Assembly (NCBI GenBank): GCA_019058275.1
Contig: JAHLVW010000062.1
Location: 96,001 to 160,000 of the forward strand
Direction of reading: 5' to 3'
DNA from: Candidatus Heimdallarchaeota archaeon
GTDB lineage: Archaea; Asgardarchaeota; Heimdallarchaeia; JABLTI01
DNA: 64,000 nt
Each line of letters opens with the position of its first letter. Within the stretch, counting starts at the first letter, position 1. Positions 3,546 through 50,500 of the stretch are shown here, one piece after another. A program made the translations under genes and the position numbers. Under the pieces are notes generated by a model that was given only the letters and a program-made list of their open reading frames with translations, was not told where the DNA came from and ran no database searches.

Positions 3546-4565
3546 ATGAGAGTTGGTATACCCAGAGCATTGATGTATTATAAATTCGCAGACATGTGGG
3601 TAACATTTTTTCAAGAATTAGGTGCAGAAGTTATTATTTCTCCCAAAACAACAAAGAAGATAAAACAAGAGGCTGTAAATATAGCACCTAATGAGGATTG
3701 CTATTCTACAAAACTGTATTATGGTCATGTAATGGCCATTAAAGATCAAGTTGATTATCTTTTCATACCTAGATATGGTGCAAGCGATAAAAGGTATGTT
3801 GGTTGTCCGAAATTTATTGGCTTGGCTGAAGTTTTAAGATCTATGTTTCCTAACTTGCCACCAATAATTATGCCACATTATAATACTGCTAAAGGTAGAG
3901 ATGGAAAATTAAGCTTCTTCTTCAAAGCTATGAAAATAGGATCAATGTTTACAAAAAATCCCTTTAAGAAAATCAGAGCTCTTCGTTTAGCTTTGAAAAA
4001 ACACAATCAACACAAAAAGGATTTGGTAATTGATGAAAAGACCCTTTACAAATGGGAGCAATCAGAATTATTCTTGAATGATCCACCAAATTCTAATCAT
4101 GGTAAGAGACAGTTAAAAATAGCATTAGTTGGTCATTCTTATGTGTTAAATGATCCTTATGCATCGTTAGATATTCGTACAATATTAAAAGAACAAGAAG
4201 TGGACATAATTACCTCTGAACAAATGCCTAGAGAATTAATTGAAAAACAAATGGACAAACAGAATTTCCAACTATATTTTTACTATGAAAGAGAAATTTT
4301 AGGAACAATAATGCATTTCCTAGAGAGCAAGACTGTTGATGGAATAATCCATATTATGGTTTTTAGCTGTGGACCAGATTCCATAGCTGGAGAAATGGCT
4401 GCAAGATTTTCAAATAGAAATCCTGCGGTTCCTTTACTTCAATTAGTTTTTGATGAATTAACAGCAGAAACTGGATTGAAAACAAGGATTGAAGCATTCA
4501 TAGACATGCTGAGAAGAAGTATAGATGCGCAGATAACATTCCAAACTACAAAAGTGCATGTCTAA
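3546..4565 (+). CDS. CoA-activase-associated reductase subunit (DUF2229 / HgdD-like; PlsA/PlsR-type domain)
   Basis: MRVGIPRAL, EDCYSTKLYYGH, GCPKFIGL, FSCGPDS, DELTAETGLKTRIEAF. Confidence 0.85.
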   Translation: MRVGIPRALMYYKFADMWVTFFQELGAEVIISPKTTKKIKQEAVNIAPNEDCYSTKLYYGHVMAIKDQVDYLFIPRYGASDKRYVGCPKFIGLAEVLRSMFPNLPPIIMPHYNTAKGRDGKLSFFFKAMKIGSMFTKNPFKKIRALRLALKKHNQHKKDLVIDEKTLYKWEQSELFLNDPPNSNHGKRQLKIALVGHSYVLNDPYASLDIRTILKEQEVDIITSEQMPRELIEKQMDKQNFQLYFYYEREILGTIMHFLESKTVDGIIHIMVFSCGPDSIAGEMAARFSNRNPAVPLLQLVFDELTAETGLKTRIEAFIDMLRRSIDAQITFQTTKVHV

Positions 4566-4622
4566 ATGGAGGAAAATATTTAATCAAATAAAAACAAGAG
4601 AAATACCCAAGGGAGCATCACT

Positions 4623-5720
4623 ATGTCAATTTCATTTCCACATGTCGGAAGTTTTACTTATGTAATGGAATCTATAGTTCGAGAGATGGGTAGAACGGAT
4701 GTAGTAGTTCCAAACAAACCTACAAACAAAACTAAGCAGCTTGGTTCTCGTCATTCACCTGAATGGATCTGTACTCCATTCAAAATGCTTTTTGGATCCT
4801 TCATTGAGGTATTAGAACGCGGTGCATATGAATTAGTAGGAACCTTGTTTATTGATTATTGTAGATTGGGTTACTATACACCTATTTATGAACTAATCTT
4901 AGAGGATTTGGGTTATGATTTTGAATTTCTATACTTGAATTTTGATAACCCTATTGGTTTCATACAAGAGATGAAAAGGCGTACAGAGGGACTAACATAT
5001 CTACAAACATTTAGAGCATTCCAAATTGGGTGGATAAAAAATCGATACATAGACATCGCAGATAAATGTCTTTACAGCTATCAAGCTGTTGAACTAGAAA
5101 AGGGTGTATCACAAAGAGTTGCTGAAAAAGCTTATAGATTAATTGTGGAAACCAGGGGAATGAGAAACATCAGAAAATTGAGAAAGATTATTCCAAAGAT
5201 GTTTGAAGATGAAGTAGAAATCGATAAGAAAGCTGATCCACTGAAAGTAGTAGTTCTTGGAGAATTATACGCAGTAGTAGAACCATCAATCAATCTAGAT
5301 GTTATGACTAAATTAAATGAACTTGGAGTGATTTCTCATACTCCTATCACATTTTGCAGATGGATAGATATCGGATCAAGAGCAAATCCATTCAAAAGAC
5401 CTAGTTTTAAGACTGCAGTTAAAAAAGCAAAACCTTATGTAGAATATAGACTTGGTGGAAAAACGCAGGAATCTATAGGTTATTCAATCATGTATAAGGA
5501 AAAAGGTTGGGATGGTGTTATTCATCTTTATCCCTTTACATGTATGCCTGAAATCATTTCTCGAAGTATAATACCTCAAATTAGTCGTGAATATGAAATA
5601 CCAATTCTCTCACTAGTATTAGATGAGCATACTGGTGAAACGGGATTAAAAACTAGATTAGAAGCGTTTATTGATTTAATAGAACGCAAAAGGAAAGTCA
5701 ATGGTGATAACATAAAATGA
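4623..5720 (+). CDS. 2-hydroxyacyl-CoA dehydratase D-like / PlsR-like subunit
   Basis: SPEWICTPFK, CRLGYY, VLGELY, PFTCMPE, DEHTGETGLKTRLEAF. Confidence 0.8.
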   Translation: MSISFPHVGSFTYVMESIVREMGRTDVVVPNKPTNKTKQLGSRHSPEWICTPFKMLFGSFIEVLERGAYELVGTLFIDYCRLGYYTPIYELILEDLGYDFEFLYLNFDNPIGFIQEMKRRTEGLTYLQTFRAFQIGWIKNRYIDIADKCLYSYQAVELEKGVSQRVAEKAYRLIVETRGMRNIRKLRKIIPKMFEDEVEIDKKADPLKVVVLGELYAVVEPSINLDVMTKLNELGVISHTPITFCRWIDIGSRANPFKRPSFKTAVKKAKPYVEYRLGGKTQESIGYSIMYKEKGWDGVIHLYPFTCMPEIISRSIIPQISREYEIPILSLVLDEHTGETGLKTRLEAFIDLIERKRKVNGDNIK

Positions 5721-5742
5721 AATTTATGTAAGGTGTTAGAAA

Positions 5743-6717
5743 ATGAAAAATAAAGTAGACAAGTATTTTCTGGGAGTTGATGTTGGCTCAATTAGCACAA
5801 ATCTAGCTGTGATAAATAATTCAAAAGAACTAATCGAATCAGTTTATATTAGAACAGAGGGCAAACCAGTCAATTCTATTCAAAAAGGCATTAAATTGAT
5901 GAAGGAAAAAATCGATAATGGGATAGAAATATCAGGTGCTGGATCAACTGGTAGTGCGAGACAATTAACCGGAGTGATAATTAGTGCTGATATTGTCAAG
6001 AATGAAATAACTGCTCACGCTTTAGCTTCTTTGCATTATAATCCAGAAATACAAACTGTAATTGAAATCGGAGGGCAAGATAGCAAAATAATAATCATAA
6101 GAAATGGTGTTGCTGTGGATTTCGCGATGAATACAGTCTGTGCAGCAGGAACTGGTTCATTTTTAGATATGCAAGCCTCACGACTGGATATACCAATTGA
6201 ACAATTTGGTTGTTTGGCATGTAAATCAAATAATGCTGTTTCTATTGCTGGACGTTGTACAGTTTTTGCAGAAAGTGACATGATACACAAACAACAATTG
6301 GGTCATTCAACTGAAGATATAATTAAAGGTTTGTGTGAAGCATTAGCTCGAAATTATCTTAACAATGTTGGTAAAGGAAAGGATATTTTACCACCTATTA
6401 TGTTCCAAGGTGGAGTGGCTGCGAACGAAGGAATGAAGGAAGCATTTGAAAAATATCTTGGGCATAAGGTAATAATTCCAGAATATTATGACGTTATGGG
6501 TGCTATTGGTGCAGCAATTTTGGCTCAAGAAGAGATTATTAAACGTCCAAGAAAAACAAAATTTGTTGGATGGAATTTACCAGATTTGGATTTTAAAACA
6601 GTTGGTTTTGAGTGTAGTGACTGTTCTAATGCTTGCGAAATTGTTGAAATAATGAAGAATGGTGATGTTATAGCAAGATGGGGTAGCAGATGTGGTAAAA
6701 GAAACATGATTGATTAG
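5743..6717 (+). CDS. Acyl-CoA dehydratase activase (BcrA/BadG/HgdC ASKHA ATPase, 4Fe-4S)
   Basis: GVDVGSIST, IEIGGQDSK, MNTVCAAGTGSFL, RCTVFAESD, QGGVAAN; C-terminal FECSDCSNAC...GSRC. Confidence 0.93.
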   Translation: MKNKVDKYFLGVDVGSISTNLAVINNSKELIESVYIRTEGKPVNSIQKGIKLMKEKIDNGIEISGAGSTGSARQLTGVIISADIVKNEITAHALASLHYNPEIQTVIEIGGQDSKIIIIRNGVAVDFAMNTVCAAGTGSFLDMQASRLDIPIEQFGCLACKSNNAVSIAGRCTVFAESDMIHKQQLGHSTEDIIKGLCEALARNYLNNVGKGKDILPPIMFQGGVAANEGMKEAFEKYLGHKVIIPEYYDVMGAIGAAILAQEEIIKRPRKTKFVGWNLPDLDFKTVGFECSDCSNACEIVEIMKNGDVIARWGSRCGKRNMID

Positions 6718-6790
6718 TTTCGAATGCTAAAAATACTTAATGTGTACTGGAAGAAATTCAAATAAATACCAGTACCTGTAAAAAGAACTG

Positions 6791-7048
6791 GTGTTATTTA
6801 TTATTTTAATTCGTCAACTTAGTACAATAAAAAGTGAACCAGTAACTAATTATGGTTCAACAAAAACAAATATTCAATGGCTTATTAGCAAAGAACAAGG
6901 AGCTCCAAGATTTGCTATGAGACTTTTCACTTTAAAACCTGGGGCAAATATAGGCATTCATAGTCATCCAGAAGAACATGAAATCTATATCGTACAAGGT
7001 GAATGTGCTCTTATCTCTGAGGATGGAACAAGAATATATTATTTTTAA
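6791..7048 (+). pseudogene. Cupin-domain gene, 5' half (interrupted)
   Basis: GAPRFAMRLFTLKPG...HSHPEEHEIYIVQG is cupin motif 1; ends abruptly; motif 2 lies at 13198-13386. Confidence 0.88.
6964..7034 (+). repeat. Left copy of a 71-bp imperfect direct repeat
   Basis: 57/71 identical to 13197-13267 by manual alignment. Confidence 0.92.
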
Positions 7049-20335: not shown

Positions 20336-21274
20336 CTACTTGTCTATCTTTCTGTCAATATCATTGTAGAGATCATTAAGGTGTATTTTGTATTTACCTA
20401 AATTTCCACCAAAATTACCTGCAGATATTTTCAGAACACCTTTAGATTTTACACCTACTTTTATTGCTAAACTCATAGCTTGTTTGACATCAACCATTGT
20501 TAGACCATTAATAACAATTTCAGGAATGCTAACAACACCCTCAGGAACAAGGCTCTCATCAATTTCCGTTCGCAAAGATGGACAGTATTGATGATTAGTT
20601 GTAGGTCCAATTTCAGGATGAGGTTGTCCTTTATAGACAGTTTTCGATCCTGCAGAGCAGATAGCGAAAGGAGTAACGATATTTTCTACATGTATTAAAG
20701 TATCAACTATTTTCTTACCAACTTTTAGGGCATTTTTCTCAGAATCGCACATCAACCAGATATTTCCACCAGATATGCCTGTTGTGTAACCAACATGACG
20801 TTCTATAAACCAATCACCCATCATTAAAGGGATTTTTATCATCTTACGATCAAATAATTCAACATCAGATTGGTAAACATCACCACAATAACCGACATTT
20901 TCCATTAAATCAAACTTGTCTTTAGATTCCAAGGCATTAAACACAGTTGTTGTGGGGATTACTAAAATACCTTGTCTAATTCTCAAACCAAGTTCTTTGT
21001 AGAATTTCTTCAAACTTTTCTCAGGATTTTCTGGATTCCACTCACCCCAAATCTGAGCAATAAAACCTGGGTTTTTATCGGGTGTTTTATCTCCTTGCAA
21101 CCATCGTTCTAAGCCTGCTTCTGTACGTCCTACAACTATTGATGGTAGTGCAGTACTTTGTGCTACTGTATAGTGCATAAGCTCTTCATCGCGAAGTGTT
21201 ACTAACAATCGAGTAACTATTCCTTCAAAAGCTTCGCAGTAAGTGTCTTCTATTTCTACTCCTTCAAGCATCAT
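20336..21274 (-). CDS. ftr: Formylmethanofuran:tetrahydromethanopterin formyltransferase
   Basis: GVEIEDTYCEAF, GGN, SAGSK, TTNHQYCPSLR, EIVINGL, ISAGNFGGNLG. Confidence 0.92.
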   Translation of the reverse strand: MMLEGVEIEDTYCEAFEGIVTRLLVTLRDEELMHYTVAQSTALPSIVVGRTEAGLERWLQGDKTPDKNPGFIAQIWGEWNPENPEKSLKKFYKELGLRIRQGILVIPTTTVFNALESKDKFDLMENVGYCGDVYQSDVELFDRKMIKIPLMMGDWFIERHVGYTTGISGGNIWLMCDSEKNALKVGKKIVDTLIHVENIVTPFAICSAGSKTVYKGQPHPEIGPTTNHQYCPSLRTEIDESLVPEGVVSIPEIVINGLTMVDVKQAMSLAIKVGVKSKGVLKISAGNFGGNLGKYKIHLNDLYNDIDRKIDK

Positions 21275-44073: not shown

Positions 44074-45183
44074 ATGATAGATGCAAAAGACATGGAAATA
44101 CTACTTACTATTCAAGACAATCCACTTGCTACATTATCTGATATTGCTTCTCAAATTAACTTAAGTATATCAAATACATCTGCTAGATTGACAAGGTTAG
44201 AAGAGATTGAAAAAGCTTTTTTTGGAGTAAAAGTCGGCTTGAATTTAAGTGCATTGGAACTAGAGACAAATAATTTCCTAATAAAACTAAATTCTAAAAA
44301 ATCTCTTAAGCTCTTTGAGAACAAATTCAGTTACTATCATCCATACTTAATGTATCGTGGTCGTTGTAATGGAAAATTTCCAGGTCTTTATTTGCAGTTT
44401 AGAACCCCAAAAGAAGGTTTAAACTATCTTGAAGAATTGTTTGGAATATTACTTTCAAAAGGTATTCTAGAGGATTTTGAATATATACAAAAACAACCAA
44501 ATGAAGCTCAAGTTCGAATTAATTCATCACTTCGTGGATGGGACCCTAAAAAACAAAGATGGATTTTTGATTGGAAGACATGGAAAGATAATTTTGAAAA
44601 CACTTCAGCTAAGTCTATACCAGAGAAATCAGGTTCTGAATCAATACTTGAGCAATTATCTGAGATGGATATCAAGCTTTTATCCGAATTAACATTGGAT
44701 GCACGTAGGAAAAACGTAGATATGATGAAAAATAGAGGAGTAGAAAATAATCCCGGAGTTGCACAGAAAGTTAGCAGAAGAATCAAATTTCTGAAGGAGA
44801 AAGCCATTTCAGATTATCGAATTTATCTCAATTGGTCAATATTCGATTTATATCAAACAATTTTGATTAAAGGTCAATGCCATAACAATGCTTCACTTAA
44901 ACTTCGAAATTATTTAACAGAAAGTAAATCAAGTATTCCATTTCAGAATATTTATTTTATTACAGATTATGGATTCTTGTGGTATATACGTGCTCCTCCT
45001 TCCCATTTAAGTGAATTAATGGATTTCATTTGGGATGTCTGTCCTGGGCATGAATTGTTTCTTATCGATTACAAATTCACTCGAGTGTATGGCTTATGGG
45101 ATCAAACTTTTAACGCTGAGAAGAAAAAATGGAAATTAAATTATGAATTTATGATTGATAATGTTGTAAAAAAAATTCTCTAA
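44074..45183 (+). CDS. Tandem wHTH Lrp/AsnC-like regulator (module A)
   Basis: DAKDMEIL..IQDNP and DIKLLSEL..DAR HTH starts; paralog of 53017-54168. Confidence 0.82.
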   Translation: MIDAKDMEILLTIQDNPLATLSDIASQINLSISNTSARLTRLEEIEKAFFGVKVGLNLSALELETNNFLIKLNSKKSLKLFENKFSYYHPYLMYRGRCNGKFPGLYLQFRTPKEGLNYLEELFGILLSKGILEDFEYIQKQPNEAQVRINSSLRGWDPKKQRWIFDWKTWKDNFENTSAKSIPEKSGSESILEQLSEMDIKLLSELTLDARRKNVDMMKNRGVENNPGVAQKVSRRIKFLKEKAISDYRIYLNWSIFDLYQTILIKGQCHNNASLKLRNYLTESKSSIPFQNIYFITDYGFLWYIRAPPSHLSELMDFIWDVCPGHELFLIDYKFTRVYGLWDQTFNAEKKKWKLNYEFMIDNVVKKIL

Positions 45184-45227
45184 AACATTGGCTCTTTAAT
45201 ATAAAACAAATAATTTAAATTTTTGAA

Positions 45228-47426
45228 ATGCTAACTTTTACTCGGAAGAGGTATAAGCTAATGACTTCTTTAATTCCTGATTATGAAATTTTTACTAAGA
45301 ATCTACCAGCTTTCTTTGTAAAAGAAGTAAAAGTAATGCGTTCAAGATTAAAGGAGAAAAATGATTTCATAGCTTATGCACAATCCATGGTTAAAGCAAT
45401 TATAAAATTCTGTTCAGAAGATTCTAACTATTCCAAATTAAAGCCTAAGATTTCTGATGAAGATTTCAATGAAATTATTAAAGCAGTTATAAGATTGCAT
45501 TTCTTTACTTATAATTCAGTAAATGCAAGATCATCAGACTTGAAAAGACTAAAAACTATTCTAAAAAGAAATAGTGATCCTATAATACAATCATGGTATG
45601 CTATTTTCTTTTTTGAAGAATGGCGAATAGAGAAACGATTTGATTATATTCAAAATCAATATAATAATTATCAGCAATTAGTAGCTGATGGGAAGGAATT
45701 TTCCTTTTTTGACAAATTGGATATACATCAGTTTCTGGGTTACTTAGCATTTCAAAAATATGATTTTCCAAAATTCAAAGAACTAACCCAAGTAATTTAC
45801 TCTATGTATGAATCAGAAGAAATGAGTGAGGATTTACTGCTATTAACGTATAAAACCATTTTCAGCAGCATTCTAGGTTATCACAATGCTCTTATTGGTG
45901 ATTTTAAAGATGCTGATTTCTTAATTGGAATTGCTGAAGCTTTTGCTGAAGAGCTAAATCTTCCATACTTAAAATCGCAAGTTAAAAGTAATTTAGGCAG
46001 TATTTACACATACAAAGGGAATCTTATCGAAGGAATAGAACAATTCAAAGAAGCACTAGTTTTAGCTCAGAAAGTGGGAAATGATTATAGTGCAGCTCGT
46101 ATAAAAGCAAATACAGGAGTAACTCAACTTTCATTAGGCTTTTATGATGAAGCATTAACATCTTTCTTAGAAGTTAAGAAATATGCTGAAGATGCTGTAG
46201 GTATTGCTCCTCTGAATTTCCATACAACAATTTTGTTGAATATAGCTGACACATACAAGGTCATGGGAAAATATCAAGAAGCAATAAATTTCTTAGATGA
46301 AGCTTTGAAAATGGAAGAGCAAAATGAAGCTATAACTGCAAATCTACTGTCCATTTACTACCATCAGATAGATGTGTTACTTGAAGCAAATAATTTATTA
46401 GAAGCTCGTAAAACACTTGAGAAACTCAAAAAAGCTATGGTGAAAATTGAAGCTACACCAATGGGCGCAGCATATAATTATATGCTGGGAATTTTGGAAT
46501 CAAAAGAAGCTAATTTTGCATCAGCTAAAAGAGTTTTATTAGAAGCAATAAGGCTATCAGAAGAACAAGCAGTAATGCATTTAGGTCCTATACGTCTTAA
46601 AGCATCCTTCCAGCTAACTAATGTTCTGTTAAACAGCTATAAGTTTACAAATAATACAGAAGAATTGCAACAAGCTCTATCACTATTAGAAAACTTGGTA
46701 AAAACCGCTGAAGAGAAAAATCTTATACCAATGCTTAGTGATTGTTTGATTGTACGCGCTTATTTAAATGAAATTCTTGATTTTAGAGAAGGAGCAATTA
46801 TGGATCTTGAAAAGGCTCAATCAATAGCAGAAGAATATAAACTACCTGTACATCTCACTCGAGCAAAGGAACGATTTGCATCACTTAGTAATAGTGATCC
46901 TAAGCTTTCAAGAACCGAGAAAGCAAATGGTTTGTTAGATTATTTAGGAGATACTCTTCCAGCCATCTTAACCTACAGAGTTGCTCATCGATCTAAAACA
47001 GATGAGAGTACATTGCTTGGTTTCCTTGTTATGACTGATATTGGTTTACCTGTATTTTCAAAGTATTATGATGAAGTTATCGAGACACAAGACATCTTAC
47101 TCTCAGGATTGATTTCAGCTGTTTCAGGATTTATACAGAATACTTTAACAAAAGATCAAAATGGTTCATTAAAAAGCATCAAACATGAAAATGTTACAAT
47201 TCTAATTGAGAGAATAAATCAGAAGCTTTCACTAGTTTTCTTTACAGAAAAGGATACCGCAGATTTACAGCTTAAACTTATACAATTAGCCAGAGAAATA
47301 GAAAATCAAGCAAAAGAGAAGTATCTTGACATAACATCTGATGAAGTATCACAAGGTGATCAAAGAAATATTCTAAAAGAAATCATTGAAAGTTCAATGA
47401 TACGAATTTTACCATCAATTAAATAG
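45228..47426 (+). CDS. TPR-repeat protein with a C-terminal longin-like domain
   Basis: SNLG/ANTG/LNIA TPR motifs; GLPVFSKYY..QDILLSGLISAV..SIKHE. Confidence 0.82.
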   Translation: MLTFTRKRYKLMTSLIPDYEIFTKNLPAFFVKEVKVMRSRLKEKNDFIAYAQSMVKAIIKFCSEDSNYSKLKPKISDEDFNEIIKAVIRLHFFTYNSVNARSSDLKRLKTILKRNSDPIIQSWYAIFFFEEWRIEKRFDYIQNQYNNYQQLVADGKEFSFFDKLDIHQFLGYLAFQKYDFPKFKELTQVIYSMYESEEMSEDLLLLTYKTIFSSILGYHNALIGDFKDADFLIGIAEAFAEELNLPYLKSQVKSNLGSIYTYKGNLIEGIEQFKEALVLAQKVGNDYSAARIKANTGVTQLSLGFYDEALTSFLEVKKYAEDAVGIAPLNFHTTILLNIADTYKVMGKYQEAINFLDEALKMEEQNEAITANLLSIYYHQIDVLLEANNLLEARKTLEKLKKAMVKIEATPMGAAYNYMLGILESKEANFASAKRVLLEAIRLSEEQAVMHLGPIRLKASFQLTNVLLNSYKFTNNTEELQQALSLLENLVKTAEEKNLIPMLSDCLIVRAYLNEILDFREGAIMDLEKAQSIAEEYKLPVHLTRAKERFASLSNSDPKLSRTEKANGLLDYLGDTLPAILTYRVAHRSKTDESTLLGFLVMTDIGLPVFSKYYDEVIETQDILLSGLISAVSGFIQNTLTKDQNGSLKSIKHENVTILIERINQKLSLVFFTEKDTADLQLKLIQLAREIENQAKEKYLDITSDEVSQGDQRNILKEIIESSMIRILPSIK

Positions 47427-47564
47427 GATCAAAAGCAATTTTGTGTAAGTTTTATAACAATCTTAATATTTGTGACGGGAATTTTTCTTTTTTCATATAA
47501 TTTGCATGTTTTACTGTTTATTAAATCACATCAAATTAATTGCTATTATTGAGGTATGTAAAGA

Positions 47565-50500
47565 TTGTCCAAAGAAATGCAAGAACAGGAAGCTAAAGAA
47601 TATAACTTCTCAATTCGAGAATTTCAGAAAACACAAAGTGATGCCCAACAACTAGCTGATTGTTATAATACATTTGATGACCCTGAATCTTGGCCAGGGG
47701 GTTTTGGTCATGGAGAACCTACAACTGCTGAAGAAATCTTAGAAAGTATGGAAAAACATACACCCTTATCAAAATTCGTTGCAATTTCTGATGGCAAAAT
47801 TGTTGGACATTGTGATGTATTAGAGAATGCAGCATTAAAGGATGTTTATTATGTTGGACTACTAGGTGTAGATCCAAAGTATCAAGGAAAAAAGATTGGT
47901 AAAAATCTGCTACTAAAAGCAAATGAACGTGTAATTGAGCTAGAAAAAGATGTTATAACATTGCATACATGGGGTGGAAACCTCAAAGGAGTTCCATTGT
48001 ACAAAAAAGCAGGTTATTTTTGGGCACCTGAAACTTCAGTCTATATGGAGAGCTTTATGCCTGGAATACTAAGACTTAAATTATTCAAGAGATTTTTTGA
48101 CAAGTATGATTGGTACACAACATATAAACGAACATTAAGCCTATTACCTGATGAAGAAAAAATCAGTAAGATGAATATTTACAATAATTATTTTGAAGCT
48201 GACAAGAACAACTCATTAAATGTAATGATAGACAGACATGCAAAAAAGATCTGTGGTTTTGAATTAAAATCTGAAGAAGGTTCTATAGGTGCAACTTGTC
48301 TAGTTGATAATCATATAGGTTATGTGGGCTATGGAAAAGTACTTGTAAAGTGGATTCTAAAAAATGAAACAAAACAAGAGAAACAATACGCTCTGTATAT
48401 TAACAAGACTAGTATTAATTTGGAAAAAGAACCAGAAGTAATGCATGTTTTGAAACCAGGTGAAACTAAAACAATTGAATCTTGGGCAACTTTAGAATTA
48501 GATGTTGAAACAAAATCAAATCCAAATGATGGTCATCTTCAAACAGAACAAATAATTGAAACACTAATTTCTTTTGATGATGAGGAAATAGATTTAACTG
48601 TTGGAATTATTCCTCTAGATCCTTTGGTTGTTGAAGTTTATCCAAGATATATTTCTGTAATACCTGGAGAGAAAACGAATGTTCCTCTTAGATTATGGAA
48701 TAGAACTGAAGATAAAATAAAAGGTTCAATAATAATTAATGAAATTCCAAATGTTGAATTTGAATCTAACACACTTTTACTAAACCTTGAGTCAAAGGAA
48801 AGAATTGATCTATCTATAAATTTCCAATTAAATGAAAATTATAATCATTCACTAGTATCATTAAAATTGAATATTTTCAAAGATCAAAAGAATGAAAGAA
48901 TTAAGCTCCCTGAGGAATTTATACAGATTCCTGTTATCGATTACTCAACAGGAACTAATTTAAAATGCTCTGGATATATAATTGAAAATAAAAAAGCAAT
49001 TCTTGAAAATAATACAATTAGATTAGAAATTAGTTTATCTGAATCATCAGTATTGAGAAGGATATTTGATAAAAGGGATGGAAAATTCTACTATTTTGGT
49101 ACTGCTCAACCTGATTTAGGTTTACCTTTTATGGGATATGCTAATGAATTCAAAAAGATTAAACATACAGCTGAAATTGTTAAGCAAAAGGAAAAAGTAT
49201 CTCTAATTTTAACAGCTACCTCTCTAAGAAAGAAAGGGATTAAATTACAAAGAACTTTCACAATTAAACCAAATAATGATCTAATAGAAATAATGGTAAA
49301 AATCGTTAATGAGTCTAGTGAAACTCACAAAGATATTGCTATAAGAATGTTGAGTGATGCTTGGGGTTGGGGTAGAATTGCTTTTGACTGTAAGACATAT
49401 CTTCCATTGAATAGAGGTTTAATGAAGGTCGATGATAACTTAGAATTTCATAGTAGTAGGCATTATCCAAAAGATGTTGATGAATGGAAGGAATCTTGGA
49501 TTTGTACCGAATTTGATCAAGCAAAATTATTTGGTTTTATGTGGGATAAAACATATCTAAAGAAAATTGAAGCAGGTATAGGTACTGCATCAACACTAGA
49601 ATATGATTTTGGAACACTAGAACCTGGTCAACATAAGCAGATAAAATACTTTATCTACTTTGGAAGAGGTAATTGGAAAGATTTCAGGAAATTATGGCAG
49701 GAGCAAATTGAAAAAGATAGTTCTTTAGCTTTGGATCCAATTGAAGAAACAATGACGATTCTAGATGAGTTTACAATTGAAACTGAATCATCTGTTTATG
49801 GCAAAATGAACTCCTTTAATATTCAACCAATAAACTATGATGATACATTAAATCTGATTGTGAATAACAATACATTAAGGAAAATTAAAGGGAAACTAGT
49901 AATGGAGCTGCCTAAAGGAGTTACATTTGAAGATAACACAAATATGTTCGAATCTGAGATTAATGAATTGGTAAGTGGGAAACCTTATGAAAACATATTC
50001 AAAATTTATGCAAATGAAATCTATTTTGGTAGAATTTTCTTTGTCAAATTGAGTATTGTTATAGAAGGAACATCATTCGATCTCTCATTTTTAGCTCAAA
50101 TACTCAATAAAGACTTCAAAATAAATATCCAGAAGAATGATGAAATTAACAATAAGGAACTTTATACAATAGATAACGGTAAACTACTCCTCTCTATTTC
50201 TAAAGATCATGGTGGCTCGGTTACATCCTTCAAAATTCCTACAATTTCCAAATCTGAGAATCTTCTAAGTTCATGGCCAGAAGTAAAAACTTTCATGTGG
50301 GATAGTCATTGGTTTGGAGGTATTGTACCAATAATTAGTAATCCATATTCTTGGGGTTCTATTACTCATCTTGAGGAATTCATTTCTGAGCAGATTGACA
50401 ATGGTCTAGAGAAAGGAATTAAGGTTACTTCGAAATTAAAATCAAAGGAACTTCTAGAGGGTCTGCAACTTGAAATTGATTATACAACATTACCTTTTTC

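Follow-up and report, generated by a model that had tools for sequence, protein, structure and literature searches.

A three-gene operon encoding a predicted ATP-driven Fe-S reductase

The window analysed here is a stretch of 64,000 nucleotides (positions 96,001 to 160,000 of contig JAHLVW010000062.1) from the genome of a Candidatus Heimdallarchaeota archaeon (GCA_019058275.1; 4.12 Mb, 92.8% complete). Three intact, co-oriented open reading frames (ORFs) occupy positions 3546-6717 of the window, with intergenic gaps of 57 nt and 22 nt (Table 1). They encode two putative catalytic subunits, named Red1 and Red2 after the Act1/Act2/Red1/Red2 scheme introduced for PlsA (PMC12838417), and an activase. 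The ORF coordinates matched exactly those of a first-pass annotation made from the DNA letters, which had described three co-oriented genes in an Asgard-like genome and had put them forward as a candidate split PlsA/PlsR/Ger-like reductase of ether lipid synthesis. Orthologues of the operon with 56-77% identity were found in more than 100 Asgard protein clusters, and the three-gene arrangement lies far beyond chance. The closest database relatives were labelled Heimdallarchaeota or Asgard, so that the proposed Asgard-like setting holds. Judged from their sequences, the three genes are well supported as a complete, stand-alone, ATP-driven Fe-S radical reductase or dehydratase of the superfamily that comprises benzoyl-CoA reductases (BCR), 2-hydroxyacyl-CoA dehydratases (HAD) and DCCP. 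Also well supported is the predicted membership of the operon in a recognised split branch of the DUF2229 (PlsA/Ger-like) superfamily with a HAD-like three-protein layout.

Table 1 Positions of the operon genes and of neighbouring features in the window (aa, amino acids).
Feature	Position	Strand	Description
Red1 (catalytic subunit 1)	3546..4565	+	339 aa; DUF2229 N-terminal part and HGD-D-like C-terminus
Red2 (catalytic subunit 2)	4623..5720	+	365 aa; Red1 paralogue
Activase (P0003; HgdC/BcrAD-type ATPase, single-domain)	5743..6717	+	324 aa; C-terminal extension
Four-cysteine tail motif of the activase	6613..6693	+	CxxCxNxCE...ARWGxxC; C291, C294, C298, C317
Inverted repeat ACCAGT...ACTGGT, then T-rich run	~6768-6805		just past the operon stop codon
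85-aa ORF	6791-7048		probable truncated gene remnant
FTR gene	20336-21274	-	formylmethanofuran-tetrahydromethanopterin formyltransferase

Red1 matched the full-length DUF2229 profile of Pfam (2e-42) and the C-terminal third of HGD-D (8e-08), and Red2 gave a weak match to DUF2229 (1.4e-07) together with one to the C-terminus of HGD-D (1.2e-06). The HGD-D matches spanned only profile positions 237-342 and 278-341, scoring 28-33 bits against a cut-off of 28.4. Across their C-terminal 150 residues the two proteins shared 33% identity. The first-pass description of one DUF2229 gene followed by one HgdD gene was correct in its domains but not in their allotment to separate genes, as the two genes are paralogous and each carries both a DUF2229-like N-terminal and an HGD-D-like C-terminal part; Red1 and Red2 are therefore the equivalent of the HgdA/HgdB pair in this system. 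Residues C52, K56, H61, C87, Y199, C275, D303, R314 and E316 of Red1 were invariant in 66 homologues, while C50, C80 and C307 of Red2 were 100% conserved in 92 Red2 sequences and invariant in a further alignment of 53. Open-iron [4Fe-4S] sites held by three cysteines are the pattern of 2-hydroxyacyl-CoA dehydratases such as HadBC, and the three invariant cysteines of each Red subunit would fit such a site.

The AlphaFold2 model of Red1 (pLDDT 94) gave 3o3m_B, 7yyl, 6eno, 8s02 and 9gai as top Foldseek matches. The closest solved folds were those of HadC, DCCP and the BzdO/N and MbdO/N subunits of benzoyl-CoA reductases, with TM values of 0.45-0.56 and 11-16% identity; the fold class of the model is clear, yet no solved protein is close. 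Both marks of the superfamily that concern the catalytic subunits were thus found, namely the HAD-beta/DCCP/BcrB fold in the Red1 model and conserved cluster cysteines in Red1 and Red2. Red1-Red2 fusion proteins of 690-770 aa exist in Dehalococcoidia and some metagenomic relatives.

The activase matched BcrAD_BadFG of Pfam (1.5e-48) and TIGR00241 of NCBIfam (acyl-CoA dehydratase activase; 5e-55). It was similar to HgdC (1HUX, 1.3e-37) as well as to MbdQ and HadI (also about 1e-37). Its phosphate and adenosine motifs for ATP and the cluster cysteines C133 and C172 were invariant in 50 homologues, and these are the features of an ASKHA-fold activator with two cysteines for a [4Fe-4S] cluster that bridges the dimer. 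The extra cysteine-rich tail pointed out in the first-pass annotation is present (FECSDCSNACEIVEIMKNGDVIARWGSRCGK), with C291, C294, N296, C298, E299 and C317 likewise invariant in 50 homologues. The four-cysteine tail was found in 56 of the 59 split-operon activases, the other three being cut or partial ORFs, and it also follows Act2 in a fused 1463-aa paralogue encoded elsewhere in the genome. The motif is a hallmark of the activases that accompany DUF2229 reductases, and it may form a family-specific metal or Fe-S site or a docking module.

Relationship to 2-hydroxyacyl-CoA dehydratases and other superfamily members

A two-subunit core with a single-domain activator and three-cysteine cluster sites is also the layout of HadBC/HadI and HgdAB/HgdC. 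The operon could accordingly be read as a 2-hydroxyacyl-CoA dehydratase with its activator (HgdAB/C, HadBC/I or FldBC/I type) serving amino-acid fermentation, and the similarity of the activase to HgdC and HadI, the rank of HadC as top structural match of Red1 and the label '2-hydroxyacyl-CoA dehydratase' on some database records of relatives would agree with this. Such a role is nevertheless highly improbable. The HGD-D match is limited to the last 70-100 residues, with scores near the cut-off, and does not extend over both subunits in full; a phmmer comparison with HadC gave E = 0.39, and the fold matches were equally good for DCCP and BCR subunits. At 11-16% identity to HadBC and HgdAB, the window proteins differ from them in a DUF2229 N-terminal part with a helical insert and in the activator tail, both of which are specific to the PlsA/Ger-like family, and no context of CoA metabolism was seen in the loci examined. 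A related-locus search was made with a 12-sequence alignment in species-representative genomes, 80 of the loci were annotated, and neither CoA-transferases nor 2-hydroxyacid dehydrogenases were among the neighbour clusters that recurred there in at least four loci, nor in the Asgard loci examined.

DCCP/DCCP-R and the class I benzoyl-CoA reductases (BzdNOPQ, MbdONPQ) share with the operon the fold class and ATP-driven electron injection. The window proteins reached 17.8 bits against a cut-off of 350 for the DCCP equivalog (double_cubane, NF040772) and were far below the cut-offs of the NCBIfam equivalogs for benzoyl-CoA reductases. A grouping with fermentation dehydratases or benzoyl-CoA reductases, which the first-pass annotation had named as an outcome that would speak against its reading, was not observed, the likeness to both being one of fold.

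A split clade distinct from the fused DUF2229 systems

The source genome contains five DUF2229 systems, four of them split (the window operon on contig C55 in our numbering, two on contig C44 and one on contig C96) and one fused (contig C16). The fused gene encodes a protein of 1463 aa with the order Act1-Act2-tail-Red1-Red2, which across 95% of its length shares 44-46% identity with fused proteins of the bacteria Nitrospira and Planctomycetes and is conserved across Asgard lineages, P. syntrophicum included. Window Red1 is collinear with the Red1 part of this protein at 26% identity, window Red2 gave local matches only to its Red2 region, and the window activase is 35% identical to its Act2 plus tail. 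An exhaustive profile search returned 365 clusters at E <= 1e-30. None of the top 150 was of the 1400-aa form; they comprised either proteins of about 300-400 aa or fusions of Red1 with Red2 (690-770 aa).

PlsA/PlsR (CPE1194/1195 of C. perfringens; single-gene PlsA of E. faecalis, L. cremoris and B. longum) has the same BcrAD-type activase, DUF2229 and HGD-D-like domains as the operon and, like it, is assumed to belong to the Fe-S enzymes of the BCR/HAD family and to be sensitive to oxygen. The domain set that had suggested PlsA/PlsR/Ger in the first place is indeed complete in the window, with kinds B (PF01869), D (PF09989) and H (PF06050) all present. With the Asgard fused protein as a stand-in for the PlsA/PlsR type, the two also share the Red1/Red2 pair and a four-cysteine tail that follows the activase. 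The two differ in that PlsA/PlsR has two activase domains fused to Red1 (PMC12838417), whereas the window has one activase, encoded last and by its own gene, with Red1 and Red2 separate. The plsA-plsR pair spans 4.2 kb and single-gene plsA 4.2-4.9 kb (PMC12838417). Ger (Tmari_0479 of T. maritima; SHJ90043 of D. alkenivorans) belongs to the same superfamily and has the architecture BBDHDDH, in which the BB-D fusion is conserved in all alkyl-ether producers (PMC13159169). This fusion of tandem activases to the first reductase (BBD, in proteins totalling about 1400 aa) is absent from the window operon and present in the C16 gene, which is of the Ger type and distinct from the operon. A 2022 paper already described Ger homologues from Lokiarchaeota, P. 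syntrophicum among them, and from Heimdallarchaeota (PMC13159169); these are presumably of the fused type.

Trees of the Red1 domain, in which fused Asgard and bacterial homologues stand in for the characterised PlsA, PlsR and Ger, parted the split from the fused forms with a support of 99 in FastTree and 99-100 in a quick IQ-TREE tree under LG+C20. All Asgard split Red1 sequences formed one clade (support 100) with three main subclades, namely the window type (with P. syntrophicum and L. ossiferum among its members), a type designated G112 and the C96 type. With the tree rooted on the fused forms, the Asgard split clade nested among bacterial split forms, beside those of Chloroflexota and Actinomycetota; this would fit an acquisition of the Asgard split systems from bacteria, the root resting on a paralogue. 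The trees thus place the window operon in a separate, conserved split clade apart from the fused type. The operon was not filed as PlsA/PlsR or Ger, since it has no BBD fusion and does not group with the fused clade. The first-pass reading of the operon as a split PlsA/PlsR/Ger was therefore given up, the fused-type gene of this genome being that on C16; the domain phylogeny which the same annotation had proposed was carried out for Red1, with the stand-ins in place of the characterised proteins. In the NCBI nomenclature the split family is called 'acyl-CoA dehydratase activase-related protein', with typical sizes of about 330, 365 and 325 aa, and the window genes conform to it in their Red1-Red2-activase order and in the grouping of Red1.

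Several features of the paralogous systems were observed in passing. On contig C44 (positions 44597-50403), two tandem Red1-Red2 pairs flank a single shared activase, which is degraded to fragments of 88 aa and 145 aa. Both pairs are preceded by a common element of about 40 bp, which was absent from the window at up to three mismatches. The window activase is the sole intact one of its near-paralogue group, and one may speculate that it serves the C44 pairs in trans. L. ossiferum encodes three fused genes (1424-1435 aa) and two split systems, one of them very divergent (C1: 3.42, 3.78, 3.95, 5.14 and 5.18 Mb).

Distribution and genetic context of the split operons

Split Red1 occurs in Asgard archaea, many anaerobic Bacillota, Actinomycetota, Dehalococcoidia, Anaerolineae (Chloroflexota) and Atribacterota. 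The order Red1-Red2-activase was kept in at least 58 of the 80 loci, which came from Asgard archaea, Bacillota, Actinomycetota, Chloroflexota and Atribacterota. The Asgard distribution was surveyed in a sample of 151 genomes grouped into families (f1, f2 and so on), and DUF2229 was limited to f1, f2 and f5, which belong to the class of the window, together with f13 and f24. In most f2 genomes a single fused gene was accompanied by one to three split genes.

Two bacterial contexts recurred. In about 20 spore-forming Bacillota (L023, L024, L029, L030, L035, L046, L054, L064, L083 and others), the operon is found between spoVAF and lysA, as part of the conserved co-directional string dacF-spoIIAA-spoIIAB-sigF-spoVAC/AD/AEB/AE-spoVAF-[Red1-Red2-activase]-PLP enzyme-lysA, which raises the possibility that the split operon is expressed in the forespore. 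In nine loci of Actinomycetota and Dehalococcoidia (including L019, L021, L025, L040, L052, L056, L085 and L088) the operon is followed by a gene for a GltD/NfnB-like Fe-S flavoprotein (Fer4_20 and Pyr_redox_2), a plausible candidate for the electron donor.

Evidence bearing on a role in ether lipid synthesis

A genome of the same genus contains its sole split operon in the string PLAT-DegV-PlsY-Red1-Red2-activase on one strand, and the same string was found in GCA_018238155.1. DegV is the fatty-acid-binding FakB subunit of fatty acid kinase, and PlsY acylates glycerol 3-phosphate with the resulting acyl-phosphate. The DegV-PlsY-linked operons belong to a Heimdall subclade that is sister to the window type within the Asgard split clade (support 100). 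Upstream genes in other members of the sister subclade code for DegV, a methyltransferase resembling PEMT, an AMP-binding enzyme and a 2-oxoacid_dh-like acyltransferase, or else for a GDSL lipase. Within the window-type subclade itself, an SCP2 lipid-carrier gene immediately precedes the operon of Promethearchaeum, with a CDP-archaeol synthase gene about 2.6 kb downstream, and the L. ossiferum locus has SDR and 2-oxoacid_dh-like acyltransferase genes upstream. A cardiolipin synthase gene lies directly upstream of the operon in four clostridial loci (L036, L045, L058 and L077), but this linkage counts as one event, because it is confined to one lineage.

The capacity for acylation is conspicuous in the source genome, which encodes 11-13 PlsY (PF02660) and about 18-20 DegV/FakB-like copies, frequently with a DegV and a PlsY gene side by side (sites include C8:15871-19507, C70:9184-11291, C69:78183-80768 and C52:56223-57856 of genome G000), as well as one Dak2(FakA)-DegV-PlsY cluster. 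By comparison, six PlsY copies were found in the same-genus genome and one to three in other genomes of the class. Among the 151 Asgard genomes, DUF2229 was seen solely in families that also have PlsY, which is weak evidence because these families are relatives and not independent samples. Furthermore, F. ferrireducens, which has two split systems and no fused one, makes plasmalogen-derived dimethylacetals (DMAs; PMC13274423 Table S1). In the Thermoanaerobacteraceae, the family of its relatives, 12 of 21 species genomes were split-only, C. subterraneus included, and the other nine, Thermoanaerobacterium included, also had a fused gene.

Context and correlation of this kind make an ester-to-ether lipid function of the split type plausible. 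For the window operon, we estimate the probability that its substrate is a fatty-acyl glycerolipid ester and its product a vinyl or alkyl ether at about 0.5.

A number of observations weigh against this assignment. The characterised PlsA, PlsA-PlsR and Ger are all fused forms of about 1400 aa (Act1-Act2-Red1-Red2), none of them split (PMC12838417, PMC13159169), and both the 26% identity to the Red1 part of the fused protein and the separation of the Red1 trees set the window operon apart from that type. A 2026 study called the role of extra PlsA homologues lacking activation domains unclear (PMC13274423). No lipid genes were found near the operon in the window, out to 24.5 kb, and the genes next to the closest orthologues, for a NIPA transporter, DUF998 and a HEAT-repeat protein, are unrelated as well; the spoVAF-lysA and GltD/NfnB-like contexts are likewise not lipid-specific. 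A search for plsC, plsY and gpsA, proposed in the first-pass annotation, gave a divided answer in that PlsY is strongly expanded, while PlsC and GpsA, and PlsX as well, were not found in the source genome at its 92.8% completeness. With regard to physiology, neither DMAs nor alkyl ethers are listed for C. subterraneus, which has two split systems (PMC13274423 Table S1), and cultured P. syntrophicum (Promethearchaeum), which has both types, showed phytane and biphytanes only (PMC11316595).

A rival reading is an enzyme of the same class whose substrate is not a glycerolipid ester or whose product is not an ether, the paralogues having diverged in substrate. Such an enzyme might convert acyl groups to aldehydes or alcohols, or reduce an unrelated oxygenated metabolite. 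The four split paralogues and one fused gene in a single genome possibly point to different substrates, and the split and fused types are probably not redundant, because most Heimdall relatives keep both. The uninformative neighbourhoods of the window-type orthologues and the roughly 20 Bacillota loci, which carry no lipid information, would suit this explanation as well, and for C. subterraneus fatty alcohols, wax esters and N-glyceryl alkylamines are listed, but no DMAs. Against it stand the DegV-PlsY-Red1-Red2-activase operons, the co-distribution with PlsY, the plasmalogens of the split-only F. ferrireducens and the fact that ester-to-ether conversion is the sole known chemistry of the DUF2229 family (PMC13159169, PMC12838417). 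We regard a divergent substrate as a serious possibility, albeit one that is less probable than a glycerolipid ester.

Another explanation concerns the isoprenoid lipids of archaea. PcrB-type GGGPS (PF01884) was not found in the source genome and was absent or weak in most of its class (3 of 17 genomes in f2), while most other Asgard families gave strong matches. GGGPS is also reported missing in the MK-D1 paper (PMC11316595), and the CDP-archaeol synthase gene near the Promethearchaeum operon could be seen in the same light. The enzyme might then act on isoprenoid lipids, either in an acylate-then-reduce route to ethers without canonical GGGPS or in the modification of archaeol-type lipids. 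The distributions over the 151 Asgard genomes speak otherwise, in that family f13 has both GGGPS (28 of 29) and DUF2229 (28 of 29), and families f15, f3 and f6 are mostly without either. The bacterial members of the clade live in organisms that have no isoprenoid membrane lipids. An action on isoprenoid lipids has, in our judgement, the slightest of chances. DUF2229 as a replacement for GGGPS was tested on the same distributions and was not supported, the two not being complementary. A broader version, in which Heimdallarchaeia without canonical GGGPS esterify glycerol phosphate by DegV-PlsY and then form the ether by split and fused DUF2229 reductases, for part or all of their membrane ether lipids, is a long shot.

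Proposed mechanism

If the operon acts on glycerolipid esters, its reaction can be outlined by homology. The activase would form a dimer in which C133 and C172 hold a bridging [4Fe-4S] cluster, as in HgdC and HadI, and this dimer would be reduced by ferredoxin or flavodoxin; ATP hydrolysis would then drive a low-potential electron into the Red1/Red2 heterodimer, with the four-cysteine tail as a putative metal-binding or docking module. The open iron of a three-cysteine [4Fe-4S] site may bind the carbonyl or hydroxyl oxygen of the substrate, as in HadBC. A candidate substrate is 1-acyl-glycerol phosphate, or a phospholipid derived from it, supplied by the FakA/DegV-PlsY system of the genome. 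Reduction of its ester carbonyl would lead to a ketyl or hemiacetal state, loss of water would then yield a vinyl ether, and an alkyl ether would arise by another reduction step, along the lines of the ester-to-ether chemistry proposed for PlsA/PlsR and Ger.

Surroundings of the operon

In the window, the operon is flanked by an H+-PPase gene upstream and an ABC transporter gene downstream, and genes for a peptidase M20, FTR and a glycosyltransferase are also present. The FTR gene fits an archaeal C1 pathway in the host. An inverted repeat with a T-rich run follows the operon, and a scan for bacterial-type promoters and terminators gave no excess over shuffled sequence. The sequencing runs listed were of sediment metagenome DNA, with none of RNA. 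The overlapping 85-aa ORF is probably the remnant of a truncated gene, because it matches the first half of a cupin domain alone (Cupin_2 positions 2-37 of 70).

Implications

The idea of an ether-lipid reductase in Asgard archaea is not new, as Ger homologues were described in 2022 (PMC13159169) and PlsA homologues without activation domains in 2026 (PMC13274423). What is new here is the distinct split clade, the presence of a fused gene in the same genome and the tie to PlsY/DegV acylation by context and correlation. In practical terms the operon offers a compact, expressible set of three genes, to which DegV-PlsY partners from the sister operons could be added. If the acylate-then-reduce route were true, it would mean that close relatives of eukaryotes have membranes that are mixed or non-canonical. 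If acyl-glycerolipids are reduced by the split systems, ether or vinyl-ether lipids derived from fatty acids could be made by Heimdall- and Loki-type archaea beside their isoprenoid ones, and this would bear on how an archaeal host could have shifted to bacterial-type membranes during eukaryogenesis.

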